DNA from: Ignavibacteriota bacterium
GTDB lineage: Bacteria; Bacteroidota; Ignavibacteria; UBA10030; CAVZMI01
Direction of reading: 5' to 3'
Assembly (NCBI GenBank): GCA_963776275.1
Contig: CAVZMI010000038.1
Location: 1 to 64,000, forward strand
DNA: 64,000 bases
Positions 3,080 to 59,416 of this stretch are shown here, piece after piece. Positions within the stretch are counted from its first letter, which is position 1. Each line of letters opens with the position of its first letter. The position numbers and the translations under genes are program-made. The notes beneath the pieces were generated by a model. That model searched no databases. It was not told the DNA's origin and worked only from the letters and a program-made list of their open reading frames with translations.

Positions 3080-3225
3080 TGGAGGGAATCAGCGTACAAA
3101 TGTTGGTTAGAGGGATTATTTGACTTTTCTATTTTATTCAGTACATTACGCTTGAATTCCTGTCTTAAGATATCATTACGAGCAGTAGAACACCTCCCGT
3201 GCTCACCGATATCCAGAGGATGAAC

Positions 3226-4026
3226 ATGCGATTACATCTATCATTACACCCCCAGCGCGAACATACAGCGATACCTTTCAATTATACATATGCGCTCTCA
3301 TCGGCGATATATCGATGGATTGAAGAGTCTTCAATAGAATATTCTTCATTCCTCCATGATAAAGGATTTTCAATTGAAGGTACGGTAAAGAAATTTCGCC
3401 ACTTTTGCTTCTCACAACTCAATATACCTCAACGAAAAATATACAACAGCAGTATAAAAATACTCTCATCGACGGTTGACTGGTACGTTTCGATGCCGGT
3501 GGAAGAATCGGTGCAGCACCTCGTAACGGGAATTTTCGAACGGCGGGAATTTTTCATCGGGGATGAAGAGAACCGCTTCGTTGTCGAGCAGGTAGAGACT
3601 CTTCCGGATCCGCCGTGGGAACGTACGATGAAGTTCAGAATGCTCTCGCCCGTTACCGTATCGGTACCTGAAGATCGCAATGGAAAGTATATGCCGCACT
3701 ATCTTCAGCCCGATGATCCGCATCTCAATGAGGCGTTACGCAAAAACATTCTCAATAAATATCTCTCTCTTTATAATCATCTCCCTTCCGATTCCGATTT
3801 CCTGTGTACGCTGGATAAGAAGTTCATTTCTGATCGGGGTGGAATAACTAAGATTACTAAACTTATCACGATAAAAGAGGGACGGCATGATGAAACAAAA
3901 GTTCGAGGCTTCATGTGCCCAATCGCTATTGAGGGAAATCCCGATTTAATCAAGCTCACATACGAAAGCGGATTGGGTGAGAAAGGATCTATGGGATTTG
4001 GGATGATTGAATACAGCAGAACGTGA
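3226..4026 (+). CDS. cas6: CRISPR endoribonuclease Cas6 (copy 1)
   Basis: FLHDKGF..FCFS motif and C-terminal GLGEKGSMGFG glycine loop; GAGGA RBS. Confidence 0.93.
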   Translation: MRLHLSLHPQREHTAIPFNYTYALSSAIYRWIEESSIEYSSFLHDKGFSIEGTVKKFRHFCFSQLNIPQRKIYNSSIKILSSTVDWYVSMPVEESVQHLVTGIFERREFFIGDEENRFVVEQVETLPDPPWERTMKFRMLSPVTVSVPEDRNGKYMPHYLQPDDPHLNEALRKNILNKYLSLYNHLPSDSDFLCTLDKKFISDRGGITKITKLITIKEGRHDETKVRGFMCPIAIEGNPDLIKLTYESGLGEKGSMGFGMIEYSRT

Positions 4027-4192
4027 CCTTCTGCGTAGGTAATGCGTGTTTGATGGTCACCTTCCCAAAAAAGTTAAAATTGGAGCTCTTTTTTCTTGAT
4101 AGTTTGTATAATATAAAAAGCAGGATTCCTGCTGACACCATTCGCTTATAACATGAGAAATACCGCTATACAAAACGGAGGAGAAAAATAAA

Positions 4193-4849
4193 ATGAGGTT
4201 CTATTTTGAGCTATCGCCGAATACAGTACCAGTGCCGTTCGATTACCAGCATTTTCTGATCGGCACGTTTCATAAGTGGCTGAGGAGAAATGAATTGCAT
4301 GACGGGATAAGTCTATATTCGCTAAGCTGGCTGTCGGGTGGTAAGCGAAAAAGTGATGGTCTGGATTTTACAAACGGAGCAAAATGGTTTGTGAGCTTAT
4401 TTGAGATCGATAGCGCCAAGAAACTCCTTAGTTCAGTATTGAGAGATCCAAATGTTTGCTGTGGGATGAAGGTGACCGGAGTCCAAATTGCAGAACCTCC
4501 ACAATTGACAACGAACCAAAGGTTTCTTGTAGCGACTCCGGTATTAGTGAAGAAGTTTGATGGCAAGGACATCAGGCATATGACTTTTACTGAGAAAGAG
4601 GCAGATAGCGTGTTAACACAGACACTGCAGAGTAAAATGAAAATTGTCGGGATCAATGACGCTTCAGCAACGGTAGAATTCGACAGAACTTATCCGAAGG
4701 CAAGAACAAAACTTGTTACAATCAAAGGCATTCACAACAGAGCAAGTCTTTGTCCCGTTATTGTGAAAGGAACTCCTCAGTCAGTAACATTTGCTTGGGA
4801 AGTAGGGGTTGGCCATTCAACAGGAAGCGGTTTCGGAGCACTTTGTTAA
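4193..4849 (+). CDS. cas6: CRISPR endoribonuclease Cas6 (copy 2)
   Basis: NELHDGISLYSLSWL and GVGHSTGSGFG glycine loop; GGAGG RBS. Confidence 0.92.
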   Translation: MRFYFELSPNTVPVPFDYQHFLIGTFHKWLRRNELHDGISLYSLSWLSGGKRKSDGLDFTNGAKWFVSLFEIDSAKKLLSSVLRDPNVCCGMKVTGVQIAEPPQLTTNQRFLVATPVLVKKFDGKDIRHMTFTEKEADSVLTQTLQSKMKIVGINDASATVEFDRTYPKARTKLVTIKGIHNRASLCPVIVKGTPQSVTFAWEVGVGHSTGSGFGALC

Positions 4850-4864
4850 AAGAAAGGAACGACC

Positions 4865-5491
4865 ATGATTTATATTGTTAAATATGCAGGACCGTTCGGC
4901 TTCATTAAACCATGGACGGCCGTGAGAGATAATGAGACCTATAGCCAAAACTTTCTTACGCCTTCGATTATCGAAGGAATAGAGAAAAAAATCTTTCCAG
5001 AATTACTGGAACAAAAAAAGTATCAGAAAAGAATTGTACGACATCGATTGACATATACTGGATTATCAAAACAACAGGAACAAACACAACCGCGCGGTAT
5101 AAGTATTACCATCAAAAAGAAAGAGAGAACTGCTGTCATAGATAGACCGCGGTCAATTTTAACGCGTGGCGTTTTGCTCAATCCGATTCTTTATCTAGCA
5201 TTCTCCAAACTTGAATTTGCCGAACGTGCATTGCAACAGCACATTTGTCTGTGCCGTAATGAGGATGTTTTACTACCTGTTGAATTTCCGACGTGTGAGT
5301 TGATCTTAAAAATAAACGAAGAAGAATTCGACGAACCGGATAACGGGTTCAATGGATTTGAGTTGCGTTTTGGAAAAACAAAGCAATCCTTCATCGTCGG
5401 ATTCAATCGTTTTGATGACAGTAAGCCGATGTATGGATGGCTTCATATTGTCGGCAATAACCCGTTAATATCACAGGTAGCTTCTCGATGA
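4865..5491 (+). CDS. cas5: Cas5-like Cascade subunit (divergent)
   Basis: N-terminal GPFGFIKP...TPS.IEG pattern typical of the Cas5 RAMP; size and position in the cas operon. Confidence 0.72.
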   Translation: MIYIVKYAGPFGFIKPWTAVRDNETYSQNFLTPSIIEGIEKKIFPELLEQKKYQKRIVRHRLTYTGLSKQQEQTQPRGISITIKKKERTAVIDRPRSILTRGVLLNPILYLAFSKLEFAERALQQHICLCRNEDVLLPVEFPTCELILKINEEEFDEPDNGFNGFELRFGKTKQSFIVGFNRFDDSKPMYGWLHIVGNNPLISQVASR

Positions 5492-7623
5492 ATCCACTGC
5501 AAGACATATATGCTAAAAGTATGAATAACGGCGGAACACTTTTAGCCGATCATTTACGTCATGTTGCTGCTGTAGCAGAAAGGGTTGCCGAGGCAGCAGG
5601 TCTAGATAAACGTCTTGCACGGCTCGGAGGGTACTTACACGATATTGGCAAAGCGCATCCCGATTTCCAGCGAAAGTTGACAAATAATAGGAACGATAAT
5701 TTTGGCATCACTTTCCGACATGAAATTGCATCACTTTTATTCCTTCCGTTATTCCCGAAAGAAGATTGGAACATACTGGTTGATATGATTGTTGCTCATC
5801 ATCGTTCCATTCGCCAGGATGCACGCGATCAGGGAATATTGGATTTAGAAAATATAGAAGGAAGTGATGAGGTATTTGAAAGGCATGTTGAGCCGTGGGA
5901 AGAATGGTCGCCAGTAGCTCTTGCTATTCTGTCTGTTGTTGGCATCTCTATTCGAAGCATAGCAAGAGATGAAACGTTAGAAGCGTTCCGGTATGTTATG
6001 AAATATTGCTCGGAAAAATCACTCGGTTGGTCGAAATGGAAAGGTGTGCTTGTCGGGGCAGACCATTTTGCCTCTGGTTTGTGTGAAAAAATAGATGCCC
6101 ATCTCTTAACGATATTCCAAACTCCCGATCTCTCATCATTTAATAATCGGGCGAATACTTTATTTCCTTTATCTCTTCTTCCTGTCGATGATGAGAGACC
6201 GCATACTCTTGTTGTTGCACCAACGGGATCTGGAAAAACCGATTTTCTGATGCGCCGCTGTCAAAACAGAGTATTCTATACATTGCCCTTTCAAGCCTCT
6301 ATCAATGCTATGTACGAACGATTCCGACAGCAGCTTCCGAATCAAGCTGAAATTCGGCTGCTTCACGCATCATCAAGATTGATGGTGAAAGGAAGTGAAT
6401 CGTATGAAGAAAAAGTTTTGCAAGATAAAGTCGGTGCATCCATTAAAGTATTGACGCCTCATCAATTAGCATCTTTGATTTGTGGAACGCGTGGCTTCGA
6501 AGCGCTTGCTGTGGATATCATGGGGAATGATGTCGTTTTGGATGAAATTCATTCGTATTCCGAGGTCGCGCAGTCTATGGTTTTAGAAATAATCAAAGGG
6601 TTGTTAAAATTACGGTGCCGAATTCATATTGGCAGTGCAACAATGCCTTTGGTTTTGCAAAAGAAAATATTAAAACTTCTTGGTGGAAAGAAACAAACAT
6701 ACACCGTGTCATTGCCTCATAATACGCTTGATACATTCGATAGGCACATTGTATATAAGAATTCATCATTTGATGAAACACGGTGCATTATTCTACAAGC
6801 TCTACAAGAGAATAAAAAAGTCCTCATCGTATGCAATAGGGTAGATACAGCACAACAACGCTTCAAGGAATGCTGTGAACTTTTCCCCCATATACCGCAA
6901 ATGCTTCTTCATAGCCGATTTCGACGAAAGGATAGGGCGGAATTAGAAAAAGAACTTCGGGAAAAATTTGATTGCTATTCGAAAGCCTGCATAGTCGTTT
7001 CAACGCAAGTAGTAGAAGTAAGTTTGGATATTAGTTTTGATGTGATGATGACCGAGTGTGCTCCGTTTGACAGTCTCATCCAACGATTCGGACGCATCAA
7101 CAGGCGTAGAACCGAGGAGATTGTTCGGAATAGGATATTAAAGCCAGTATATGTTATTGAGCCGCCGGAAGACAGCAAAAAGTGTTTACCCTATACGCAT
7201 GAAATACTCGAACAAAGTTTTGCACAGTTACCGGATAAAGAAGTATTGCACGAGTGTGATCTCCAAAAAAAGATTGACGAGGTATTTCCAACTCTTAAAG
7301 AGATTTCCATTAACACTCATTTAGTATGGGAAAAGGATGAGTTTCTTTTGACGGAACTTTGTCATTTTCCCTCTTCTGTTCTGATGGAATCACTGAACAT
7401 CGAATCGGCAACCGCGATTCGATATTCAGATTTAGAGCAATATGAAAAGGGAGACAGTGAACAAAGGGTTAGCATCGAAATACCAATACCACGAACGGCA
7501 AGGTTCCGTAAATTCACGAATTATGGATATTCAAAATATGGAACCTGCCCAATTATTGTTCATGACAAATTATATAGTCCATCGCTAGGATTAGAATGGA
7601 AAGAAATAGATACAGTAATCTAA
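5488..7623 (+). CDS. cas3: Cas3 HD nuclease-helicase
   Basis: LHDIGK, RHE, AHH, ADH (HD domain); APTGSGKT, DEIH, SAT, STQVVEVSLDI, QRFGRINR (helicase). Confidence 0.97.
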   Translation: MNPLQDIYAKSMNNGGTLLADHLRHVAAVAERVAEAAGLDKRLARLGGYLHDIGKAHPDFQRKLTNNRNDNFGITFRHEIASLLFLPLFPKEDWNILVDMIVAHHRSIRQDARDQGILDLENIEGSDEVFERHVEPWEEWSPVALAILSVVGISIRSIARDETLEAFRYVMKYCSEKSLGWSKWKGVLVGADHFASGLCEKIDAHLLTIFQTPDLSSFNNRANTLFPLSLLPVDDERPHTLVVAPTGSGKTDFLMRRCQNRVFYTLPFQASINAMYERFRQQLPNQAEIRLLHASSRLMVKGSESYEEKVLQDKVGASIKVLTPHQLASLICGTRGFEALAVDIMGNDVVLDEIHSYSEVAQSMVLEIIKGLLKLRCRIHIGSATMPLVLQKKILKLLGGKKQTYTVSLPHNTLDTFDRHIVYKNSSFDETRCIILQALQENKKVLIVCNRVDTAQQRFKECCELFPHIPQMLLHSRFRRKDRAELEKELREKFDCYSKACIVVSTQVVEVSLDISFDVMMTECAPFDSLIQRFGRINRRRTEEIVRNRILKPVYVIEPPEDSKKCLPYTHEILEQSFAQLPDKEVLHECDLQKKIDEVFPTLKEISINTHLVWEKDEFLLTELCHFPSSVLMESLNIESATAIRYSDLEQYEKGDSEQRVSIEIPIPRTARFRKFTNYGYSKYGTCPIIVHDKLYSPSLGLEWKEIDTVI

Positions 7624-7635
7624 AAGGTGGAAGCT

Positions 7636-8955
7636 ATGTACACATCATTTATCGGACAGAGGTTTTTAGAAATAGTTAACAAAACACGCAAAAAGAAGTA
7701 TTCAGCAAAAGAATATTTTAAGAAAGAATACTTCCCGTTGTTCTATGATCATCCAAAATATTTACAAAGCCCTGCAAACACACCACTCTTTCAAGTTATT
7801 GCTCAGAAGAAAACAAATAATTCAAAAGCGCGTCATAATGCCTTTAATGAAATTGTTGAAAAAATTAACTCCTTTGCAGAATCAAAGAACAATTCTCCAG
7901 ATATGAGTTTTGGTTTAGGATTTGCTTCTGCCGATCTATTAGGTACAACATCAGGGCAGATCACATCACTAATATTGCCTTTTGAAGCCGAGGACATGTA
8001 TGCCTCTTGGATAGGTGCAGGTTTTGGGATAGGAATAGCAGGAGGATTGAATATTTTGCTTGAGGGACAAGAAATCTTAGAAGCGATTGAGGAAGGATGG
8101 AGTTTGTACAGGGAATATACCGACGAAAATAAAGGAATTGATAATAAAGTTGAGACTTGGAATGGTGTTTGGTTGGCACATAGATTCGGTGGAAATTATA
8201 AGCCACAGTCGCCAAGAGCTAATTTCCAACCAGTGAGTTCAGGAAAAGATGGAGTAGCAAAAATGGAGCGTCCGTCTTGGACTAATGTTTTGTTCACGCT
8301 CGCAAAGATTTATCCCAAACAAACATTGAATGGGTATGTTTATGGTTTTGGGCAGATGAACAGAACGATTGGCTTTGTTCGTTTTGCTTTACCGGAAGTA
8401 CATAAAATGTCGGAGCTATACCATACTCTCTTCGGTAAGAGCAAGATATTGTCCAATAAAGAACTTGCTCATATTTATGAATCTGAATTTGCGTTTTCTA
8501 CGGTGTGCGAAAGATTCAGCATGATTGGCTTACGTTCTTTTGAACCAAAAGATTTACGTAAATATATGCCCGGCAGATCCAGTTCGAATGAGATGCCAAA
8601 ACTTAAGGATGATGAAAAATCTCAAATAAACTATTCATTTTACATTACATGGGTGATAGCTATGCTTAATAACAAAAATCTTCTTGATTTGGCAGAAAAA
8701 GCTGCTCATGCGTTTCGAGAGTATGAAAAAGGAGGAAAGAAAGGAACTGTAAAGCGTGATAACGAAATAAAAGAACTACTATCCTCCCGCAATCGCAAAG
8801 AGTTGATCGATCAGCTTACTCTACTTGTTGAAGAAGAACCGAAGATATCTGAGGTATGTAATACTCTAGTCCATGAGTTAATGGAGAATATTGCAGTAGA
8901 CAATGTCCCACTTTTTGTAACGCTGATACGTTTCAAATATGCATTACCCAATTGA
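7636..8955 (+). CDS. cas8: Probable Cas8 large subunit (divergent)
   Basis: ~440 aa ORF between cas3 and cas7 with a helical C-terminus; call is positional. Confidence 0.62.
   Translation: MYTSFIGQRFLEIVNKTRKKKYSAKEYFKKEYFPLFYDHPKYLQSPANTPLFQVIAQKKTNNSKARHNAFNEIVEKINSFAESKNNSPDMSFGLGFASADLLGTTSGQITSLILPFEAEDMYASWIGAGFGIGIAGGLNILLEGQEILEAIEEGWSLYREYTDENKGIDNKVETWNGVWLAHRFGGNYKPQSPRANFQPVSSGKDGVAKMERPSWTNVLFTLAKIYPKQTLNGYVYGFGQMNRTIGFVRFALPEVHKMSELYHTLFGKSKILSNKELAHIYESEFAFSTVCERFSMIGLRSFEPKDLRKYMPGRSSSNEMPKLKDDEKSQINYSFYITWVIAMLNNKNLLDLAEKAAHAFREYEKGGKKGTVKRDNEIKELLSSRNRKELIDQLTLLVEEEPKISEVCNTLVHELMENIAVDNVPLFVTLIRFKYALPN
8662..8955 (+). CDS. Putative internally translated Cas11 small subunit (97 aa)
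   Basis: In-frame ATG (MLNNKNLLDLAEK...) preceded by GGGTGA SD-like sequence within cas8. Confidence 0.45.
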   Translation: MLNNKNLLDLAEKAAHAFREYEKGGKKGTVKRDNEIKELLSSRNRKELIDQLTLLVEEEPKISEVCNTLVHELMENIAVDNVPLFVTLIRFKYALPN

Positions 8956-8988
8956 TGGTAAAAATAACTTTAAATAAGGAGAACCAAT

Positions 8989-10047
8989 ATGGGATCATCA
9001 TTTATTTATATTCGCGGGCTTCGACATGCCGAACATACGGTGTTTTGTGTTCAAGAAGGACAAAAGACATACTATGATAATCTATTTGGGAAGTTTGTTC
9101 CTTATTCGAGTGGTCAACAGGTTAAGCGTTCAGCATTAGATTCTGTTCTGGAAGTCCTGGGAGAACAACAAGCACCAATAACTTTTAATAAAGTAATAAA
9201 TGAAAAGGGCGGTTTGGGTGAGGGAGAACCATGGTCACCCTGTGATCCCAAATATACTGATCAATTACTCGGCGGTTGGATGCGAGCTCAGGCTGGGGAA
9301 ACACCGGTTAAGAGACGAAGTCCATTGTCTATTTCTGCAATGCGTGCATTACATCCTCTTTTATCTGGTGTCGTAAGAGAGAATTTGACCTTTGATCGCA
9401 GCAGTAATCCTGAAATACATCCTGTTAAAGTTCGCGATGCAAATGGAAAAGAAATGTCAGAAGTTGAGATTAATAAATTTCTTGAGAACAAAAAAATATC
9501 GCTTACACGTAGAAATTATATTCAAGACAATACAAGGGCAGCGGGCCTATTTGTATACGACATTGCAATAGATATGCGTACGCTCTTTTCCGTGTCATTG
9601 AATAAATATGAACGTGAAATAACGGATGATATTGGAAAAGAACTTATAGAGAATGGTTGGAAAGAATCTAGGAATGTTTTCGGTAGCTGTTTGATATGCC
9701 CCAAAGAGAAGAGAGATAAGATTATTTGTGCTCTTGCTAAAGGTATTATTAATTGGAGAATTACCAGCAACCAATCCCGCACATTCAGTCTTATGGAGAC
9801 ACTTGCTATTGCTATGAGCGATAACGCAAACAAAGTGGCAAGCGCAATACGTGCTAAACTTTCAGAGGAATCAGAGAAACCCCGTGCAATCCCGATTATT
9901 GACGATACCGTTGGGGCGGACTTGTTTATAACTCTTCCCTGTGACGGATATGTCCAAGGAGTGCACGGAACGGCGAATGCAATGGATGATGCAGAGAACA
10001 AATTGAAGGAAACGCTGTTGGCATATGACTATGAAAAGCAAGTGTAG
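8989..10047 (+). CDS. cas7: Cas7 backbone subunit (divergent)
   Basis: PYSSGQQVKR, DQLLGGWM, KRRSPLSIS, GLFVYDIAID motifs; AGGAG RBS. Confidence 0.85.
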   Translation: MGSSFIYIRGLRHAEHTVFCVQEGQKTYYDNLFGKFVPYSSGQQVKRSALDSVLEVLGEQQAPITFNKVINEKGGLGEGEPWSPCDPKYTDQLLGGWMRAQAGETPVKRRSPLSISAMRALHPLLSGVVRENLTFDRSSNPEIHPVKVRDANGKEMSEVEINKFLENKKISLTRRNYIQDNTRAAGLFVYDIAIDMRTLFSVSLNKYEREITDDIGKELIENGWKESRNVFGSCLICPKEKRDKIICALAKGIINWRITSNQSRTFSLMETLAIAMSDNANKVASAIRAKLSEESEKPRAIPIIDDTVGADLFITLPCDGYVQGVHGTANAMDDAENKLKETLLAYDYEKQV

Positions 10048-10104
10048 TCTCTTTCCTCGGGGTTTGAGCAAAGCAGAAGGAGACCTTCCACCGGGAACTT
10101 AAAA

Positions 10105-10599
10105 GTGACCATTACCGGAACACATATCAATTATTATTTCGTATGCAAACGAAAACTCTGGCTGTTCTCGTCCGGGATACAGATGGAACAAACTTCAGAT
10201 ACGGTGCTGATGGGAAAGATTATCGACGCCGGCAGTTACGAACGTAAAGAAAAAGCAATCGATATCGACGAATCGATCGTCATCGACTGGCTCGACGAAA
10301 AGAGCGGCGTCATCCACGAGGTAAAGAAATCCGACAGTATGGAAGAAGCGCACCGCTGGCAGGTGCTCTATTACTTATGGTATCTTAAACAAAAAGGAGT
10401 CGAAGGGTTGAAAGGCGAAATCGACTATCCGAAGCTGAAGCAAAAGGTGACTATCGAGCTGACACCCGACGACGAACACCGAATGCTCGGTATACACGAA
10501 GCAATCGAAACAGTTGTAAACGCTGAGAAACCACCCGATAAGAATACGAAGAAATTCTGTAAAACCTGCAGTTATTTCGAGCTGTGCTGGGTGGAATAG
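10105..10599 (+). CDS. cas4: Cas4 nuclease
   Basis: YYFVCKRKLW, IDW..HEVKKS, QVLYYL, C..CSYFELC iron-sulfur cysteines. Confidence 0.96.
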   Translation: MTITGTHINYYFVCKRKLWLFSSGIQMEQTSDTVLMGKIIDAGSYERKEKAIDIDESIVIDWLDEKSGVIHEVKKSDSMEEAHRWQVLYYLWYLKQKGVEGLKGEIDYPKLKQKVTIELTPDDEHRMLGIHEAIETVVNAEKPPDKNTKKFCKTCSYFELCWVE

Positions 10600-10621
10600 C
10601 ATGGCAAGGCAGAGGTAAAAG

Positions 10622-11718
10622 ATGAAAAGACCTTACTACATATGTTCTTCCGGACGCCTAAAAAGGCGCCAGAACACAATCTATTTCGAGTCGTTTCCTG
10701 CCGGTGAACCTGACCCCGCTGTTGCGGACGAGGAACTTCTTGCGGGTTTCACAGAAGAGGGGAAGAAAGACGATAACGAACCGGTGAAACGAAAACCAAT
10801 TCCCGTTGAAGATATTGAGGCCTTTTACTGTTTGGGGAACTCGATTTTAATTCGAAATTTTTCAATTTTCTATCGCAGCAGAAGATTCCGCTTCATCTAT
10901 TCAATTATTACGGCTATTATAGCGGTAGTTTTATGCCGCGCGATTATCTCCCCTCGGGACATACGCTTGTGGAACAGGTGCGGGCATATCTTGATCCGCA
11001 TCGAAGGCTGGTTCTTGCCCGTGAATTTGTCGATGGTGCTTCATTCAATATTCTTAAAAATCTCCAGTACTATTCAAATCCTTCGCGGGATACGGGTGAA
11101 CGTAGAATCGATTTTGACACGGCAATAAAGGATATCGAGTCACTCCGGTTATCAATTCCGAACGCTCAGACGACGCAGGAACTCATGGGCATCGAGGGGA
11201 ATATTCATGATCGCTATTATCGGTGTTGGGAAGATATTCTCGGGCAAGAATATGCTTTGGAAAAGCGTGTGAAACATCCGCCCGATAATGCGATCAATGC
11301 GTTAAAATCATTTGCAAACGGCTTGGTATATTCCACAGTATTGAGCGAGTTATATCATACGCATCTATCTCCAACTATCAGTTATCTGCATGGTCCGGGT
11401 GAACGGCGGTATTCGTTGGCTCTAGATGTGAGTGAAATTTTTAAGCCTATACTTGCCGATAAGATGATTTTCAAACTTTTGAATAATAAACAGATACAGG
11501 AAAAGCATTTTCGGAAAGAGTTAAATTTTTGTTATCTTGAGGAAAACGGCAGGAAGATCGTGCTCCAGGAATACGATGAGCGGTTGAAAACGACCATCAA
11601 GCATCGTGGTCTCGGGAGGAATGTATCGTATCGCCACCTCATTCGTCTCGAAGCATATAAGCTTGTGAATTATCTGATAAGTGGAAATGAATATAAAGCA
11701 TTCAGAGCATGGTGGTGA
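10622..11718 (+). CDS. cas1: Cas1 (type I-B-like), single frameshift near 10833
   Basis: GRLKRRQNTIYF in one frame; ELMGIEG, HPPDNAINAL, LALDVSEIFKP, YKAFRAWW in another; one missing T restores FGELDFNSK. Confidence 0.93.
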
Positions 11719-11720
11719 AT

Positions 11721-11984
11721 ATGTATCTGATTATCGTTTATGATGTTGAAGAAAAGCGGGTTGCAAAGATATGCAAATATTTGCGCAGATATCTTCATTG
11801 GGTCCAGAACAGCGTTTTTGAGGGGGAGTTGACCGACGGCAAGTTCACTGAAGTACAAACCGGCCTCAAAAAGCGAATAAAACCTGATGAAGATTCAGTA
11901 TTGTTTTATAAATTACGTTCAGGAGATGAAATAAAAAAGGAGGTCATGGGATTAGAAAAGGCTCCGATCGAGAATATACTCTGA
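11721..11984 (+). CDS. cas2: Cas2
   Basis: YLIIVYDV...YLHWVQNSVFEGEL...DSV. Confidence 0.97.
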   Translation: MYLIIVYDVEEKRVAKICKYLRRYLHWVQNSVFEGELTDGKFTEVQTGLKKRIKPDEDSVLFYKLRSGDEIKKEVMGLEKAPIENIL

Positions 11985-12083
11985 TAGTCGTCAGCTTCCT
12001 GGACTTTTTACACTATCGTATGTTGACGACGACATCGTTAGTAAAAATGCCGAATGGCAGTTTTTTTAAGCCTTTTTTAACTA
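11985..12083 (+). promoter_or_regulatory. CRISPR leader
   Basis: Between cas2 and the first repeat; inverted motif GTCGTCAGC...GTTGACGAC and T-tracts next to the repeat. Confidence 0.8.
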
Positions 12084-15000
12084 GTTTGAATCGGACCAAA
12101 GTGGAATTGAAACTTTGGGTGATCTATTTCAAGATTATCATTTGTACATGTTTGAATCGGACCAAAGTGGAATTGAAACATTCCCATCCTTCTCACTCCG
12201 AATCGAGTGCCGACGGTTTGAATCGGACCAAAGTGGAATTGAAACCAGTGAGCGCGAGTGAGATCTTCGCCAACTTCTCCGTTTGAATCGGACCAAAGTG
12301 GAATTGAAACTAGAATGAAGTGTTGAATTAATGCCGAGAAGCGCTACGTTTGAATCGGACCAAAGTGGAATTGAAACGGTGAATACGAAGGTGTCGTTTG
12401 AAGCGATGCACGAAGTTTGAATCGGACCAAAGTGGAATTGAAACCCAAGATTCGAGGCAGTATTCGCCTCGCCCGATCCAGTTTGAATCGGACCAAAGTG
12501 GAATTGAAACGTGAGAGAACGATAATAGATGATTTGAAAGAATATGGGTTTGAATCGGACCAAAGTGGAATTGAAACAGTATTGATTGCAAAGATGCATG
12601 GAGTCTTGTTGTTGGTTTGAATCGGACCAAAGTGGAATTGAAACTAAGTGACATCATCGGCAACTTCCTTGTTTTTTAATTGTTTGAATCGGACCAAAGT
12701 GGAATTGAAACTAAGGAAAGTCGTTGATTTCCTTTCCGATTCATTTGGTTTGAATCGGACCAAAGTGGAATTGAAACTAGCACGTTTCTCCGCTGCAATA
12801 TCATTCTGGAAGGCGTTTGAATCGGACCAAAGTGGAATTGAAACGATGCAATCTAAATAGGAAAAATAAATGGCCTGGAGTTTGAATCGGACCAAAGTGG
12901 AATTGAAACAAAGGCAAAAGCAAACTGGAGAGGACGTGGATTCCGCGTTTGAATCGGACCAAAGTGGAATTGAAACAATGAATTTGAGTTTGCCGTTGAC
13001 TTTATTCTTGAGTTTGAATCGGACCAAAGTGGAATTGAAACCTTGCAACTGCAATTACGGATATATGGGAACCAACTAGTTTGAATCGGACCAAAGTGGA
13101 ATTGAAACCAAATATAACTTTAAATGTTTGCCCAAATATTTTAGTTTGAATCGGACCAAAGTGGAATTGAAACATAGGTTCGCGATTGCTTCATCTGAAA
13201 TTATGATTGAGTTTGAATCGGACCAAAGTGGAATTGAAACAAAGAATTGGAATTCTATACCGGTCTTACACTCTTTGTTTGAATCGGACCAAAGTGGAAT
13301 TGAAACCTTGATAGATCATTATTCGATTGGATAACCATTTCGTTTGAATCGGACCAAAGTGGAATTGAAACTTTTTATAAATAACAACCTTCCGGCTGTG
13401 AACTCTAAGTTTGAATCGGACCAAAGTGGAATTGAAACGTATTCTTTCGCCAGCGTCGTGTACTTGGAACTTTTGGTTTGAATCGGACCAAAGTGGAATT
13501 GAAACGAAAAGCCATGACGGTTTCCATGAGCGTTTTATTGAGTTTGAATCGGACCAAAGTGGAATTGAAACCAAGCTCAGGTTATCGAGCATAAAGATGA
13601 AGGCGGTAGTTTGAATCGGACCAAAGTGGAATTGAAACCATTGTAATGTTCAAGGATGGCTTGCGCCTGTGCATGTTTGAATCGGACCAAAGTGGAATTG
13701 AAACATGGCTGCAACAACTTCAGTGACGGCTGGACTGATTTGTTTGAATCGGACCAAAGTGGAATTGAAACGTAGTTTCAATCCTTCCGGCAATGTACAA
13801 CCGCTGAGTTTGAATCGGACCAAAGTGGAATTGAAACTCACATCTTGTGCAGGCGGACGTATTCGTACCGTCAAGTTTGAATCGGACCAAAGTGGAATTG
13901 AAACTTTGTCGTATCGGGTCTGACATCGAATGAGAATGTCGTTTGAATCGGACCAAAGTGGAATTGAAACATTTACGTTCCGCTGGACTCATCTTGTACT
14001 CAGGGAGTTTGAATCGGACCAAAGTGGAATTGAAACTAATAAGACGTGCGACTGCATTACGGATCGGTAATCGTTTGAATCGGACCAAAGTGGAATTGAA
14101 ACTAAACTTTGACATCGAAAGAATTATTAAATCCCATACGTTTGAATCGGACCAAAGTGGAATTGAAACGAGCAATACTGTCAATCTTCGTCTCAGATTG
14201 CATACGTTTGAATCGGACCAAAGTGGAATTGAAACCATTGTTCTTTGTGATGGAAATGGTTAATGAGGTTAGTTTGAATCGGACCAAAGTGGAATTGAAA
14301 CCTTTATGTGCATTAAGCATCGCGCCAGTGACATATGAGTTTGAATCGGACCAAAGTGGAATTGAAACGATATTGCAATTAATCTAATTATGTCTGCATT
14401 GGAAGTTTGAATCGGACCAAAGTGGAATTGAAACGCCCAAGTCACTATAAACGGCTTCAAGACTCGGAGAGTTTGAATCGGACCAAAGTGGAATTGAAAC
14501 CTTGACCTATTATTGAATCCGCAGCAACGGATGTTGGTTTGAATCGGACCAAAGTGGAATTGAAACGTTCGATTGATCTGTTGTCGTTGGCATGTAGTAG
14601 CCGGTTTGAATCGGACCAAAGTGGAATTGAAACCAATCGTAGTTATTGAATCATTCCGGGTTGCAATCGGTTTGAATCGGACCAAAGTGGAATTGAAACA
14701 TCAATACACTGTTGCCAATGGAACGCATTATTTTAGTTTGAATCGGACCAAAGTGGAATTGAAACTGTATCAAGATTCAAAAGACTGTAATCCTTGACAA
14801 GCGTTTGAATCGGACCAAAGTGGAATTGAAACGTCTTGTAAATGCAATGAAGGTTGCAGTTACTTCCGGGTTTGAATCGGAACAAAGTGGAATTGAAACT
14901 TAGGAATGGATTTGATTCTGAGGGAATTAAAACGTGTTTGAATCGGACCAAAGTGGAATTGAAACGTATTGAGGGTGGACTTAAAAGACATAAAAAACAT

Positions 15001-18000
15001 TGTTTGAATCGGACCAAAGTGGAATTGAAACTTTTCGGCATATTCTAACTCATGAGTCATTGTCTTGGTTTGAATCGGACCAAAGTGGAATTGAAACATG
15101 CGAAACGTATTCGTGAGTTGGAAGATGCACAGGCGTTTGAATCGGACCAAAGTGGAATTGAAACTAGCAATAGCTCCTTGTGGATTGTGATTTTGTGATG
15201 GGTTTGAATCGGACCAAAGTGGAATTGAAACAAATTAATATCCCTGGTTGTTTAAGAATTGACATTAGTTTGAATCGGACCAAAGTGGAATTGAAACTGG
15301 GAACAAACGGTGCAACTAAACCGATTACATCCGGTTTGAATCGGACCAAAGTGGAATTGAAACGACCTATTCGGGGATTCGAAAAACGATCGCTGCCTCG
15401 TTTGAATCGGACGAAAGTGGAATTGAAACTGGGTATTCGGTGATGGAGCAGTCCATCCGGATAGGTTTGAATCGGACCAAAGTGGAATTGAAACGGGAGG
15501 AGAATGATTTCACTCTGGCGTCAGTTGAGGGTTTGAATCGGACCAAAGTGGAATTGAAACGAGGAAAAAGCGATGTTGACTGTTTCATTGAAAAAAGTTT
15601 GAATCGGACCAAAGTGGAATTGAAACTATGCTGCTGTCGATCAATGCACATCAAATTATTCAGTTTGAATCGGACCAAAGTGGAATTGAAACTTGAGAGA
15701 GAGGCAAATAATGGAATTTGTAAAAAGCGTTTGAATCGGACCAAAGTGGAATTGAAACAAAAAGAGGATAAAGATATTGCGGCAGCCTACAGAAGTTTGA
15801 ATCGGACCAAAGTGGAATTGAAACTTGCTACCTGTTGCGGACTTAATTTGATTGGAAGAAAGTTTGAATCGGACCAAAGTGGAATTGAAACACCATAGGC
15901 TTCTGCGATCTGTCCGTCGATCCCTTCGTTTGAATCGGACCAAAGTGGAATTGAAACCCATGAAAAGCCGAAGAGGCTAATTACTTTAATATAGGTTTGA
16001 ATCGGACCAAAGTGGAATTGAAACATCTTCATCAAACTCTACTCGACCAATAATTTTCAAGTTTGAATCGGACCAAAGTGGAATTGAAACATTGAGAGAT
16101 ATTGTAACTTTGACGGTTCTTGAAGTGTTTGAATCGGACCAAAGTGGAATTGAAACCAAGAACCGCCGGTATGATGTGGGTCGTCTCCTTCGGTTTGAAT
16201 CGGACCAAAGTGGAATTGAAACGATTCACTTATTGCTTTAATGGTTAATTCCGGCACTAGTTTGAATCGGACCAAAGTGGAATTGAAACGTGGGATTACA
16301 GAGATATGAAAGGTAAATTATTTTCGTTTGAATCGGACCAAAGTGGAATTGAAACTATATGCACATCATCTGCACATACCTGAGCCGGTTCAGTTTGAAT
16401 CGGACCAAAGTGGAATTGAAACAAGGAACAAAAGCATTGAATAAATCATAATGGAAATGTTTGAATCGGACCAAAGTGGAATTGAAACCAACTCTACACT
16501 TCCGTCATCTCGTAGACGAACATGGTTTGAATCGGACCAAAGTGGAATTGAAACAAGGCAATACCAGCAAGTAAAATATTGAATCCAATTGTTTGAATCG
16601 GACCAAAGTGGAATTGAAACAATGTTATACCCGGAACTACATCGCTGATCACTCCGGTTTGAATCGGACCAAAGTGGAATTGAAACAATTTCATTGGCGG
16701 TTTAATCGAAAAACCTAAGATTGTTTGAATCGGACCAAAGTGGAATTGAAACGCAGAGAAGTGGAATAAGGTCTGGGCGTTTAGGGTGGTTTGAATCGGA
16801 CCGAAAGTGGAATTGAAACCGTGTATAAGCTGTAATCGTTGGATCACTCACTTCAAGTTTGAATCGGACCAAAGTGGAATTGAAACTGAAGTTGAAGTGT
16901 GGCCCCATTCCATTTCATATAAGTTTGAATCGGACCAAAGTGGAATTGAAACGGTGTTGAATGTTCTAAACATACTTGGACATCGGGAAGTTTGAATCGG
17001 ACCAAAGTGGAATTGAAACTATCAACCATTGCCTGGATACTCTCGCGCTCGTCCGTTTGAATCGGACCAAAGTGGAATTGAAACTATCATCGGTGCATCA
17101 AATGCGACGGCGGCAGCGGTGTTTGAATCGGACCAAAGTGGAATTGAAACGCTATAAGTTCTCCTTCATGAAAATGTTTATTAAAAGTTTGAATCGGACC
17201 AAAGTGGAATTGAAACTTTTCCAAGCGCCGTTAATGAGTGTCTACCTTTTTGTGTTTGAATCGGACCAAAGTGGAATTGAAACAGTATTGCAAGACTTGA
17301 ACAGGGATTTTATCGACGATAGTTTGAATCGAACCAAAGTGGAATTGAAACTTTGTCGTATATCGGAGTTCAACATCTTTTCCGAGAGTTTGAATCGGAC
17401 CAAAGTGGAATTGAAACCTTTCCGGGAAAACACCGAAATGTTTTAATAATTCAAGTTTGAATCGGACCAAAGTGGAATTGAAACAATGTAACTCGTGAGT
17501 TTGAATGTATTGACTATCAGAGTTTGAATCGGACCAAAGTGGAATTGAAACTAAGTAGTTGCATCATAGAATATACCGTCACCATCGTTTGAATCGGACC
17601 AAAGTGGAATTGAAACCCCATCCTGCCATGCCGCAATTATGTAATAGTATTCCGTTTGAATCGGACCAAAGTGGAATTGAAACACGTCCGCCTTCTTCGT
17701 GAATTTTTTGGCTGGCTTTGGTTTGAATCGGACCAAAGTGGAATTGAAACCAACATATGGATGGTGCTGACGCATTGTCTTCTGTGGTTTGAATCGGACC
17801 AAAGTGGAATTGAAACCACTAAATGTCTTCGTACCATTCAACATCTCTTCCAGGTTTGAATCGGACCAAAGTGGAATTGAAACAAGAGATCGCCCGCTGC
17901 CATTGAAGTCAATCCATCGTGTTTGAATCGGACCAAAGTGGAATTGAAACGCCGTTCAGGCATTGCAGGCAGATGCGGGATTGCCGTGTTTGAATCGGAC

Positions 18001-20686
18001 CAAAGTGGAATTGAAACCCTTCAAGGGTTTCATCTTCTTCTTTTTCATACTGAGTTTGAATCGGACCAAAGTGGAATTGAAACCGAAAAGGGTGATGTTG
18101 TATCTTTGACTGGTACTATGTTTGAATCGGACCAAAGTGGAATTGAAACGAGTATCCGGTTGACAGCTTTCTCCTCATAAGAGAGCGTTTGAATCGGACC
18201 AAAGTGGAATTGAAACGAAGGTTGAAAGTCGCTGAACAAGTCCGTCCAAGACAGTTTGAATCGGACCAAAGTGGAATTGAAACCATCATTTACTTTGAAC
18301 GAAAATGAATATGCTTGATCGTTTGAATCGGACCAAAGTGGAATTGAAACATGTAACCGATGTCCATACCGATGTTGATACAGTGCGTTTGAATCGGACC
18401 AAAGTGGAATTGAAACTGGAAACAGTGGCCGAAGGAAAAGCCGAATAAGGATGGTTTGAATCGGACCAAAGTGGAATTGAAACGGGATCCAAAACTTTCT
18501 CACCTTTAAAGTCATCCTCGTTTGAATCGGACCAAAGTGGAATTGAAACACTTGATTCAGCTAAACCCGTTTTCGATAATTATGGGTTTGAATCGGACCA
18601 AAGTGGAATTGAAACTATAAGGTTTCAATTGTAATCCAACAAGCACCCTTGTTTGAATCGGACCAAAGTGGAATTGAAACGGAGGTGATTGAGAAGATCA
18701 GGGAAAGAACAAAAATGTTTGAATCGGACCAAAGTGGAATTGAAACGAGTGAAATCATTCTCCTCCCTGGGAAATCGGTATTGTTTGAATCGGACCAAAG
18801 TGGAATTGAAACTTCGATGTCCATTGATTTTACAATACAAGACGTGACCGTTTGAATCGGACCAAAGTGGAATTGAAACATGGGAAATCCCATGCTTTAT
18901 AAAGCATGGATTCAAGTTTGAATCGGACCAAAGTGGAATTGAAACTGAGTTGGTTTTCGGTTCAATCGTTCAAGGAATTCTGTTTGAATCGGACCAAAGT
19001 GGAATTGAAACTGAAGTCCTTCACGTCTATATATCGCATCGAGTTCAGTTTGAATCGGACCAAAGTGGAATTGAAACGAATTAATCGTGACGAAAGAAAA
19101 TGCTGCCGATTTTAGTTTGAATCGGACCAAAGTGGAATTGAAACGATCACCGGGAATCTTTATTCTGGAGTTTTTCAAGGGGTTTGAATCGGACCAAAGT
19201 GGAATTGAAACAATAGTATATGGGTACAAGTCGGATGGACTGATTTAAGTTTGAATCGGACCAAAGTGGAATTGAAACAATTTGATACGAATAATACTCC
19301 GACAAATCTCGCAGGTTTGAATCGGACCAAAGTGGAATTGAAACGATTTTATTTCATCAATGACTTGATCCGGTGACATCTGTTTGAATCGGACCAAAGT
19401 GGAATTGAAACGATACAGGGACAGATTGATATTCTAAAATATATATTAGTTTGAATCGGACCAAAGTGGAATTGAAACGTGGAATGTTCACGCAGGATAT
19501 GGAAGACTTTGCAGGTTTGAATCGGACCAAAGTGGAATTGAAACAAAGATATGCTCGAAGCGGTGAAGGCGAACATCCGGTTTGAATCGGACCAAAGTGG
19601 AATTGAAACAAAGATATCGATGATTTTAAAACTATTCTTTATAATGGTTTGAATCGGACCAAAGTGGAATTGAAACCATTGATACAAGAGATAAAACTTG
19701 CAGACCTAAAAAGTTTGAATCGGACCAAAGTGGAATTGAAACATATGACCATTGATAAATATAATCATCAATATCATTGTTTGAATCGGACCAAAGTGGA
19801 ATTGAAACTATCTTGTACCTATTTTTACATTCATGATTTTGTCAGTTTGAATCGGACCAAAGTGGAATTGAAACGGGAAAGGTTTTGGCAATTCCCGACG
19901 TTGTGATAGGAGTTTGAATCGGACCAAAGTGGAATTGAAACGGAGAATTTATTAGTGATTTGTTCTTTGAAAAATATGTTTGAATCGGACCAAAGTGGAA
20001 TTGAAACAGAATATACATATACCATTCTTTAACGGCTTTCATAGTTTGAATCGGACCAAAGTGGAATTGAAACTCGGTAAGTATCGCTTTTGTCATATAA
20101 CGGAAAAGCGTTTGAATCGGACCAAAGTGGAATTGAAACTTTGTGTGATCGTCGCGTTTTACATTGGTACTCTGCGTTTGAATCGGACCAAAGTGGAATT
20201 GAAACGAAATTGCCGCTATGACACCATTGCCAGTTGTCGAAGGTTTGAATCGTACCAAAGTGGAATTGAAACGAAAGATTTTATCTGCTTTGCAAATTCA
20301 AGACTCATGTTTGAATCGTACCAAAGTGGAATTGAAATTTTGCAAATTCATCAATGAGTTGTTTTTCCATTTTCGGTTTGAATCGAACCATCATGGAATT
20401 GAAACAAACATTGAAAGGTGTTCCCTACATAGTGCGCGTACTTTGAATCGAACCATAATGGAATTGAAACGGTGTCCACCATGCCCAGTAATACCCTGAC
20501 TTCGCACTTTGAATCGGACCATAATGGAATTGAAAGTTTCATTGCTTTCCCTTTCCTGTTTGTGAGACTTTGAATCGAACCATAATGGAATTGAAACTTT
20601 TTTAGGGTCGTTGAATCAGCGTTTTTCAGCAATGTTTGAATCGAACCATAGTGGAATTGTCCCGACGGAAAGCGTCGGGACGAAAA
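12084..20686 (+). CRISPR. CRISPR array, about 130 repeats GTTTGAATCGGACCAAAGTGGAATTGAAAC (30 bp), spacers mostly 35-38 bp
   Basis: Manual count; ATTGAAAC 3' end, leader at left and degeneration at right give + orientation; point variants near 14870, 15400, 16789, 17322, 20243, 20309. Confidence 0.99.
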
Positions 20687-20749
20687 TTTGCTGAGGGTTT
20701 ATAATTTTTGCTTATCTCGTCTTGATGATTTTGTATAAGTGAAAGAAGT

Positions 20750-21074
20750 GTTTGCTTGTGGTGAGCGAGTTCCGCCCCGTTTTTGGGTGGGGCGAGTCGA
20801 ACCAAATCGGACCATAATGGAATTGAAACGGTGTCCACCATGCCCAGTAATACACTGACTTCGCACTTTGAATCGAACCATAATGGAATTGAAACTTTTT
20901 TAGAGTCGTTGAATCAGCGTTTTTCAGCAATGTTTGAATCGAACCATAATGGAATTGAAACAGAAATGCTTCTGCTTTGCCGATGATACAGGTAGGACTT
21001 TGAATCGAACCATAGTGGAATTGTCCCGACGGAAAGCGTGGGGATCGTACCGACAAAACCGGTCGGGACGAAAA
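20750..21074 (+). CRISPR. Satellite mini-array, 4 variant repeats ((G/C)TTTGAATCGAACCATAATGGAATTGAAAC), 3 spacers
   Basis: Two spacers are near-copies of 20471-20506 and 20598-20633; first and last repeats interrupted by hairpin elements. Confidence 0.9.
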
Positions 21075-21237
21075 TTGCTGATAGTCAACCACAGGATGTG
21101 GTTGATCCCGTTTGTGGTAGGATGCCAACAATCGGGGAACAAAAGACTTTTTGTAGCAACTACGTTTTTCGTTCTGTATGGTGTGTGTTGAGCCTTACCT
21201 CCCACCTAAAGTATAAGCTTCTCACCCTGCCAAAATA

Positions 21238-21266
21238 TTACCAACCTTTGACATTTTTTTGACAAC
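21238..21266 (+). promoter_or_regulatory. 11-bp-period direct repeats (OmpR/PhoB-type box)
   Basis: TTACCAA 21238, TGACATT 21249, TGACAAC 21260; TATCAT at 21280. Confidence 0.5.
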
Positions 21267-31047: not shown

Positions 31048-31246
31048 ATCGAATTTCCAATTCAACAAAATCGGCAACACGAATTTCGGTTCGACCGCTC
31101 GATGAGGTCTCGACAAACTCGACCCAAGACTCGCGGTAAACAGGCTTGCCCGGAGCGTGCCGAGGGGCTCACCGCAAGCCAATTCGACCGTTCATGGAGG
31201 TCGAAATGACCCGTGGTGAGCAGGGCCGAACCAAATTTCGACCAAC
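31044..31246 (+). repeat. REP cluster upstream of RAYT with nested hairpin insertions
   Basis: GTAGATCGAATTTCCAATTC..., GGTCGAAATGA[CCCGTGGTGAGCAGGGCCGAACC]AAATTTCGACCAAC. Confidence 0.75.
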
Positions 31247-31285: not shown

Positions 31286-31921
31286 ATGGAGAACAAAACA
31301 TTTTACCGTCGTCACCTTCCACATTATCAACCATCGGATGCGACATTCTTTGTGACGTTTCGATTGGCAGGATCACTGCCTGCGGAGGTGATCGAAAAAA
31401 TGCGTATTGATCGACAACTGACAAAACGAAGGATTGAAAACATTGGTAATAGGAAAAACCGATCAGACGAATGGCATGAGTTTAATAATGAATATTTTTC
31501 ACGTTTTGATGGATTACTCGATAGAGGTTCCCATGGCCCTCTCTGGCTTAGAGAACTGGAGATTGCATGCATTGTCCAGAATGCACTTCATTTCTATGAT
31601 AAAGACAGATACGATTTACTATGCTTTTGCATAATGCCAAACCATGTCCATGTGGTAATAGATGTAGGTCGAAATGAAATTTCGACCAACAACACATCAC
31701 TGTTACGTATTCTGCAATCAATAAAGAGACATACGGCACATAAAGCAAACATCGAACTTAATCGGCACGGTGCATTCTGGCAGCACGAAAGCTACGATCA
31801 TGTCGTACGCGATGATGCGGATTTATCACGGATAGTTGAATATGTAATTTATAATCCTGTTCAGGCAGGATTGGTTAAATCGTGGGAAGAATGGCCTTGG
31901 ACATATTTAAAACGCATGTAG
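31286..31921 (+). mobile_element. REP-associated tyrosine transposase (RAYT, HUH Y1)
   Basis: RRHLPH, FFVTFRL, IMPNHVH, FWQHESYDHVVR, YVIYNPVQAGL. Confidence 0.92.
31664..31690 (+). repeat. REP inside the RAYT coding sequence
   Basis: GTAGGTCGAAATGAAATTTCGACCAAC: GTAG tetranucleotide plus palindrome. Confidence 0.8.
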
Positions 31922-59372: not shown

Positions 59373-59416
59373 TGTCTCGATTGATGGTTCGACGAGCTCA
59401 CCACAAGCTCGACACA
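59372..59416. repeat. Nested REP-like hairpins
   Basis: GTGTCTCGA..TGGTTCGACGAGCTCACCACAAG..CTCGACAC. Confidence 0.65.

Follow-up and report, generated by a model that had tools for sequence, protein, structure and literature searches.

Short dispersed hairpin elements interrupt three trailer-end repeats of an Ignavibacteriota CRISPR array

The window analysed here is a 64,000-nt stretch from the genome of an Ignavibacteriota bacterium (assembly GCA_963776275.1, contig CAVZMI010000038.1, positions 1 to 64,000). Its plus strand carries a locus of CRISPR (short palindromic repeats, clustered and regularly interspaced) and cas genes, which comprises a cas gene block (3199-11985), a leader of ~100 nt (~11986-12083) after cas2 and before the array start, and an array of 134 repeat units (12084-21074). 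Exactly three repeats of the array are interrupted, and all of them are among the last six units. The inserts, called (a), (b), and (c) in array order, probably go back to two independent, precise insertions of non-autonomous mini-elements into old repeats of the trailer end.

Parsing the array with the consensus repeat GTTTGAATCGGACCAAAGTGGAATTGAAAC at up to seven mismatches yields 133 repeat-like 30-mers and one unit with a 1-nt insertion. The repeat is identical to the consensus in 119 cases, and the spacer length is 35-37 nt in 128 of 132 intervals. The unit with the 1-nt insertion is an otherwise normal repeat at 16789-16819 (..GGACCGAAAGTGG..). Mutations appear in the repeats from ~20243 on and the last ~12 units are degenerate, consistent with an old, leader-distal array end.

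In the interrupted repeat (a) (20634-20686), 25 nt of repeat are followed by the insert and then by GAAAA, which places the insert between GGAATT and GAAA. Insert (a) (20659-20681) is a perfect 23-nt hairpin, GTCCCGACGGAAAGCGTCGGGAC, composed of GTCCCGAC-GGAAAGC-GTCGGGAC. One G at its boundary is ambiguous, as is also the case for (c). In the interrupted repeat (b) (20750-20829), GTTTG is followed by a 50-nt insert and then by the remaining 25 nt of the repeat, AATCGGACCATAATGGAATTGAAAC; the insert thus lies between GTTTG and AATCGG. Insert (b) (20755-20804, plus strand) is a composite in which a shell, CTTGTGGTGAGCGAGT ... CGAGTCGAACCA, surrounds an inner hairpin, TCCGCCCC..GGGGCG. Its junctions cannot be shifted by a single base, and the target shows neither duplication nor loss. 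In the interrupted repeat (c) (20998-21074), the 47-nt insert (21023-21069) occupies the site of (a) and consists of two GTCCCGAC-type hairpins side by side. Their stems are similar, and five of the seven loop letters differ.

Excision of 23, 50, and 47 nt restores repeats (a), (b), and (c), each of which then differs from its neighbours at two positions. The initial annotation had claimed three repeats with inserts, full repeats upon removal of the inserts, and two tandem hairpins in (c) at the site of (a). Direct reading agrees on each point, the array parse finds only these three units interrupted, and the insertions are precise. The annotation had also matched the ends of (b), in reverse, to an element at 59385-59407. 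In accordance, the minus strand at these positions reads CTTGTGGTGAGCTCGTCGAACCA, the shell element in its minimal 23-nt form, and a host hairpin, GTGTCGAG..TCAATCGAGACAC, carries it in its loop.

Alignment of 20430-20760 with 20740-21140 reveals two parallel blocks on the plus strand. With R for repeat and S for spacer, block 1 (20441-20749) reads R-S1-R-S2-R-S3-R(a) followed by 63 nt of non-repeat DNA (20687-20749), and block 2 (20750-21085) reads R(b)-S1'-R-S3'-R-S4-R(c) followed by the start of the trailer. The spacers of the pairs S1/S1' and S3/S3' are identical at 35 of 36 positions each, and both blocks finish with ..GAAAATT(T)GCTGA. The parallel blocks, the near-identical spacers, and the common ending indicate that duplication of the array end followed the hairpin insertion and that one unit was later lost from each copy. 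The duplication therefore bears out the earlier suggestion that (a) and (c) stem from one original event. Since the initial 17 nt of hairpin 1 of (c) plus the last 6 nt of hairpin 2 make up insert (a), the latter may have arisen by deletion from an ancestor with two hairpins; the opposite order, in which an insertion into (a) yields (c), is equally possible. Insert (b) occurs in one block only and therefore represents a second, independent event. By simple arithmetic, two random events would both fall among the last six of 134 units with a chance of ~0.002; the clustering at the trailer end is explained by greater age and relaxed selection. The 63 nt between the blocks (20687-20749) are AT-rich and, by eye, unlike the present leader. 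They show only patchy likeness, also judged by eye, to the trailer after 21085.

The initial annotation had made its reading depend on the inserts being members of multi-copy families elsewhere in the genome, a metagenome-type binned assembly (3.70 Mb, 38 contigs, 5.3% contamination). A genome-wide count places both inserts in dispersed families, with controls at 0-4 copies. The hairpin GTCCCGAC-loop-GTCGGGAC of inserts (a) and (c) has eight copies in the genome compared with none for a control stem, and the same family with 6-bp stems has 24 compared with three. Among 1214 hairpins with 8-bp stems, GTCCCGAC and its relative GTCCCGAT (nine copies) belong to the four most frequent. As read from the match list, four of the seven other perfect GTCCCGAC copies are nested between GAGCGAGT and ACGAGTCGAA of shells; some copies with weaker stems lie in the loops of other hairpins, e.g., at 30252 of contig C34. 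The predicted fold of the (a) hairpin has an energy of -21.3 kcal/mol (z -4.1). The hairpins of (a) and (c) form 10-11 pairs in the fold, eight of which are the perfect stem of the family, which makes them short imperfect palindromes. A scan of metagenome contigs gives a single exact match to the (a) hairpin, lying inside another composite; this match, with one identical 7-nt loop, could be due to chance.

The same type of hairpin appears in a further setting. At 58700-59900 of contig C5, 3' of a tRNA-Thr gene, a tandem repeat of ~252 nt contains tRNA-like pieces and shell composites. The tRNA-like pieces carry a GTCCCGAC-type hairpin in the place of the anticodon loop, and ARAGORN calls the tRNA-Thr only.

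The shell of insert (b) is also a dispersed family. Its 5' end, CTTGTGGTGAG, occurs 22 times in the genome compared with three for a reversed control, and the shell core, GAGCTTGTCGAA, occurs 40 times compared with four. The pattern CTTGTGGTGAG..(0-80 nt)..TCGAACCA has 20 copies, seven of which are the minimal 23-mer; the remainder contain further units or hairpins and are nested forms, and tandem arrays exist as well. The triplet that precedes TGAGC is complementary to the triplet that follows TCGAA in 37 of the 40 core copies. Six stem types are present: CCC/GGG (12 copies), TGG/CCA (10), CCG/CGG (7), TCC/GGA (6), and two singletons. In the fold, the (b) shell alone forms four pairs and its inner hairpin forms ~9. 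A composite at 58406-58449 of contig C6, GAGCGAGT-[TCCCGAC..GTCGGGA]-CGAGTCGAA, combines the (b) shell with a hairpin of the (a) type, the added material being in the loop. Only eight of the 40 core copies, including five from a single tandem array, are located well within long open frames, compared with 74% of random positions. The tandem arrays include one at 91275-91619 of contig C28, with a 46-nt period and a unit that is one element nested in another, and arrays of mini-elements at 18799-18891 of contig C4 and 6973-7200 of contig C21, with periods of 23 and 32 nt.

Outside this genome, a scan with one genome per species finds the exact 23-mer at no fewer than 118 loci (i.e., at least 118) in many phyla, with unrelated flanks. 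Among the matches listed, all 80 of 80 titles denote metagenome-assembled or uncultured genomes, and the labels include Patescibacteria groups, Ignavibacteria, Bacteroidota, Zixibacteria, Planctomycetota, Spirochaetes, Chloroflexota, Acidobacteriota, Gammaproteobacteria, and others. In several cases, a copy lies within the loop of a sister unit, and one of these copies is triply nested. At 14 of 116 loci, the junction has a perfect host stem of at least 5 bp, compared with 3.1 (maximum 9) for shuffled partners. The junctions show a base bias, with A at -1 in 46 and T at +1 in 72 of the 116. IMG/VR contains two loci with the exact 23-mer. A blastn search of an element tandem array against plasmids and phages gives no match, a result in which the low-complexity filter is possibly involved.

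Close relatives provide empty and filled sites. The flanks of window 59385-59407 are 93-94% identical on both sides to those in G001, a genome of the same genus. There, the host hairpin GTGTCTCGATTGA-CA-CTCGACAC is present without the 23-mer. In G001, a neighbouring copy of the host hairpin, GTGTCTCGATT..CACTCGACAC (contig C6; L163 1790-1945), has a different insert, a hairpin element of ~95 nt with inverted ends, at the same loop position. In other phyla, the 23-mer lies in an open frame at five loci and is always read in the same frame, which gives one fixed peptide reading. By eye, the hosts include histidyl-tRNA synthetase (HisRS), a winged helix-turn-helix (wHTH) protein, and an S16-like ribosomal protein, the last of these in its tail. 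Among 12 HisRS orthologues (a thirteenth locus is left out of the count because its anchor motif is not seen), eight are empty, two have the exact element (+8 residues), and two have diverged copies (+4 and +5). The HisRS inserts (L135, L136, L148, and L153, all from small genomes) are positioned in a surface loop between the RYDQTVPLAR and FKRYQ motifs. The empty, filled, and diverged orthologous sites indicate that the element is gained and inherited, and then decays like any other insertion.

A gene for a tyrosine transposase of the type associated with repetitive extragenic palindromic (REP) sequences, hereafter RAYT, is located ~10 kb downstream of the array (31286-31921, plus strand, 211 aa). 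It scores 83.8 bits against the NCBIfam RAYT cut-off of 80, and is the one of nine Pfam Y1_Tnp matches in the genome that exceeds this cut-off. The gene is bracketed on both sides by a ~57-nt direct repeat with GTAG-headed hairpins, and one GTAG hairpin lies in frame inside the open reading frame (ORF) at ~31664-31688, just after the HVH motif. Within 200 nt upstream are nested shell-like elements (31086-31233); by eye, these comprise a minus-strand composite (31086-31180) and, in the loop of a GTAG hairpin, a diverged copy (31207-31233). The arrangement is suggestive of a link, but the cognate-looking repeat of this RAYT is the GTAG hairpin and not the shell. A RAYT paralogue (132292-132963 of contig C23) has a longer insert at the place of the GTAG hairpin, and a third copy (7205-7833 of contig C2) is a pseudogene with a shell-like element, containing a stop, at that place. 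By eye, no GTCCCGAC hairpin is seen in the 300-nt flanks of the nine Y1 matches.

The initial annotation took the inserts for REPs mobilised by a RAYT (Y1/HUH) enzyme, whose presence in the repeats hinders Cas6 processing or caused the local duplication. We consider this explanation unlikely. The RAYT gene and the shell-like copies next to it are in its favour, as are the other Y1_Tnp matches, the Y1-like matches in four of five small element-bearing genomes, and the position of (b) at the junction of the two duplicated blocks. In addition, HUH enzymes of the IS200/IS605 and REP/RAYT systems use hairpin substrates and insert without target duplication, which suits the shape of the inserts and their junctions. 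However, the hairpins that flank the RAYT gene belong to a different, GTAG-headed family, neither insert has the GTAG or CGTC head of classical REPs, and no unique functional spacer lies beside the interrupted repeats. The association was examined in 201 genomes of one phylum, which are related and not independent; 12 of them are element-rich (at least 11 core copies). Close homologues of the window RAYT (E <1e-30) occur in 17 of the 200 other genomes, and just one of these 17 belongs to the element-rich group. Of the 11 other element-rich genomes, six lack a match to this RAYT at E <=1e-5. Y1_Tnp (E <=1e-10) is present in 10 of 12 element-rich genomes versus 112 of 189 others, in a sample of related genomes. 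Among five small 23-mer-bearing genomes, mostly Patescibacteria, also called the candidate phyla radiation (CPR), by record title, four have 3-13 Y1-like matches, and the fifth has nine core copies and no Y1 match. Five Y1-like genes in three of the small genomes are flanked by their own, different palindromes. The association of the elements with Y1/RAYT genes is weak or absent. Of the proposed mobilisation, the presence of Y1/RAYT-type genes in the genome is supported, and a tie between these genes and copy number is not supported. Given the copy-number mismatch across genomes and the different flanking palindromes, the RAYT hypothesis is open but unsupported.

Two other explanations can be weighed against the same data. 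The elements could be a selected structured RNA motif or protein-binding site, with the array copies acting, e.g., as stabilisers or terminators of the pre-crRNA 3' end. The covariation of the stems around a conserved 11-nt loop fits such a role, as do the stability of the (a) hairpin and the position of (a) and (c) in the last repeat of each block, but we find it quite improbable. Rfam reports nothing in the window at gathering score; for three element-rich loci searched at E up to 1, it reports just a tRNA at gathering score and four sub-threshold matches, and thus no family for the elements. A terminator scan finds no T-run terminator at the hairpins. Moreover, the copies are on both strands, nested, in frame in genes, and present or absent at orthologous sites. 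The array end with its inserts could instead be an assembly artefact, in which strain variants or repeats are mis-joined. The binned assembly of 38 contigs and its contamination would allow it, the blocks differ by single bases as strain variants would, cas1 is frameshifted, possibly by a sequencing error, and the available 151-nt read contig ends at 20497, short of the inserts. Nevertheless, an artefact would not place family members with exact boundaries in repeats and leave both halves intact, and like insertions are found in independent assemblies of many organisms. We regard it as highly improbable.

The reading that we prefer is that of two insertions. The first event would be the entry of a GTCCCGAC-type hairpin into a repeat, later copied with the array end to give (a) and (c); in the second, a (b) shell element would have inserted already carrying its inner hairpin. 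Both inserts would come from one system of very small, self-nesting dispersed repeats, in which each unit has a short stem, covarying between copies, with the conserved loop GAGC-NNN-TCGA at its centre. Additional units or hairpins would enter that loop, the loops of other hairpins, intergenic DNA, and occasionally genes in frame, without target duplication. Of this reading, the precise insertions, family membership, nesting, empty and filled sites, and wide distribution are observed. The elements may move as single-stranded DNA hairpins with an enzyme supplied in trans, for which a Y1/HUH transposase is one candidate. In the array, the inserts would be passengers and not CRISPR regulators; their persistence there would reflect the age of the trailer end, on which selection no longer acts.

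Several results weigh against the two-insertion reading. The genome comparisons set out above for RAYT and Y1 genes, including the small genome without a Y1 match and the Y1-like genes with palindromes of their own, count against it as well. The inner hairpins and loops of the composites are nearly all different from one another, which is not predicted by simple copy-and-paste of composites, and the 116 junctions examined share no fixed target motif. The insertion reading is somewhat weaker for (a) and (c) than for (b), because just 4-5 nt of repeat follow the hairpin. Finally, the read data from one run (X1, share 0.06) amount to that single 151-nt contig (~20347-20497).

A further proposal dispenses with an element-specific enzyme. 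The shell may be a minimal mobile DNA of 23-25 nt, identical across phyla including Patescibacteria (CPR), of a kind not described before, and moved by a conserved host function. Such an element would copy itself into hairpin loops, into its own loop (as Russian-doll and tandem forms), into housekeeping genes in frame, and into CRISPR repeats. It would do so without duplicating the target and without a linked or element-specific transposase. We put this forward as a possibility, and a doubtful one.

For the CRISPR system, the effect of the inserts on Cas6 processing is probably small. The interrupted units lie at the decayed trailer end and flank no unique functional spacer: 3' of (a) are the 63 nt of non-repeat DNA and 3' of (c) is the trailer, neither of which is a normal spacer. 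Insert (b) could affect the maturation of S1' only, the near-identical twin of which, S1, is intact. With type I Cas6 enzymes, the handle of the CRISPR RNA (crRNA) is formed by the final 8 nt of the repeat; inserts (a) and (c), 4-5 nt from the repeat 3' end, would therefore be inside the handle. The consensus repeat folds no better than shuffled sequences (z 0.66). The idea that the insertion sites mark a single G·G mismatch of the paired repeat ends depends on this weak fold and is set aside as a remark.

The cas genes are all on the plus strand. Pfam matches identify cas6 (3199-4026), cas3 with HD and helicase parts (5488-7623), cas4 (10105-10599), and cas1 (10622-11718); a second cas6-like gene lies at 4193-4849, and a putative cas2 (~11722-11985) is assigned by position only. 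The Pfam search of the cas-block ORFs gives no match for three ORFs. With cas3, the adaptation genes, cas6, and a regular repeat-spacer array all present, the locus is a type I system. The subtype may be I-B-like, judging by the repeat ending ATTGAAAC. cas1 is split into two overlapping frames, with the N-terminal part in one and Pfam Cas1 positions 79-283 in the other, which reflects a frameshift near 10870-10930 or else an error in the sequencing there. A crude search of the whole genome for periodic 18-mers finds no second CRISPR array; the other periodic loci that it returns are read as protein-coding or other tandem repeats or as a tRNA-like run. In G001 (contig C6), kdpC is followed by one further small ORF region and then by the orthologue of window 21240, without CRISPR-cas. 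The whole 18-kb locus (window 3100-21240) is therefore an island gained or lost within the genus, and for this reason G001 offers no orthologous array for comparison. In metagenome contigs, exact matching finds the shared spacer at 0 loci.

Among known systems, REPs, with REPINs and RAYTs, share several properties with the elements: they are short multi-copy hairpin repeats, mostly intergenic, with Y1-type genes in the genome, one of which has hairpin repeats on both sides, and no target duplication. The elements described here likewise have many, mainly extragenic copies (40 of the core and 8-24 of the hairpin). REP families are usually lineage-specific, whereas the shell sequence is exact across phyla, and no genome-wide tie to RAYT is found in the phylum sample. 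The shell, unlike a REP, is a 4-bp stem with a conserved loop and nests in itself. The conserved GTAG or CGTC head that the elements lack is attributed to classical REPs in one account (PMC3733652).

Other mobile elements have been found in CRISPR arrays. An account of Anabaena 7120 describes arrays CR_6 and CR_7 as one array split by a 134-nt miniature inverted-repeat transposable element (MITE), and one paper, as far as its title goes, deals with Tn7-like transposons that target CRISPR repeats. The initial annotation's remark that it did not know this as a described interaction, if read as saying that none is described, goes too far. In those cases, as here, a mobile element interrupts an array, but the present inserts are 23-50 nt long, gene-free, and inside repeats of which both halves are kept. 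Nor does insert (b) look like a MITE: its junctions show no duplication, its ends (CTTG.. and ..CCA) are not inverted repeats, and no parent insertion sequence is seen. Compared with IS200/IS605-type (Y1) elements, (b) likewise lacks a duplication, and the 116 junctions show no fixed 4-5-nt target.

In habit, the closest relatives are the short dispersed repeats (SDRs) of cyanobacteria. The SDRs of Nostoc, from work by Elhai et al. in Genome Research in 2008, are reportedly 21-27 nt long, show mobile behaviour, and are nested, with no linked transposase. The likeness is in size class and habit as so described, and concerns other organisms. The 23-mer also resembles Rickettsia palindromic elements (RPEs) in being read in one fixed frame inside protein genes. 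RPEs are palindromic repeats inserted in frame in unrelated protein genes, according to a review of MITEs (PMC10969869). In contrast to the present element of 23-25 nt, which is spread over many phyla and, in this genome, is mostly extragenic, RPEs are ~150 bp long and confined to Rickettsia. Literature searches by element DNA strings, peptide readings, and concept, with most subscription journals outside their coverage, find no description of the element.

The array feature is real and modestly unusual, and the element family is worth study in its own right. The array offers a small but clean case of trailer-end repeats that can acquire dispersed mini-elements without loss of either repeat half. 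In array-finding software and spacer counts, such an interrupted repeat will be mistaken for a 136-nt 'spacer' or for the array end. The larger point is a 23-nt sequence that is exact across distant phyla, nests in itself, has covarying stems, and leaves empty and filled sites in close relatives. The element accounts for short peptide inserts that recur in the proteins of uncultured bacteria. Should it move without a dedicated transposase, it points to a copying mechanism for very short DNA that is so far unknown.

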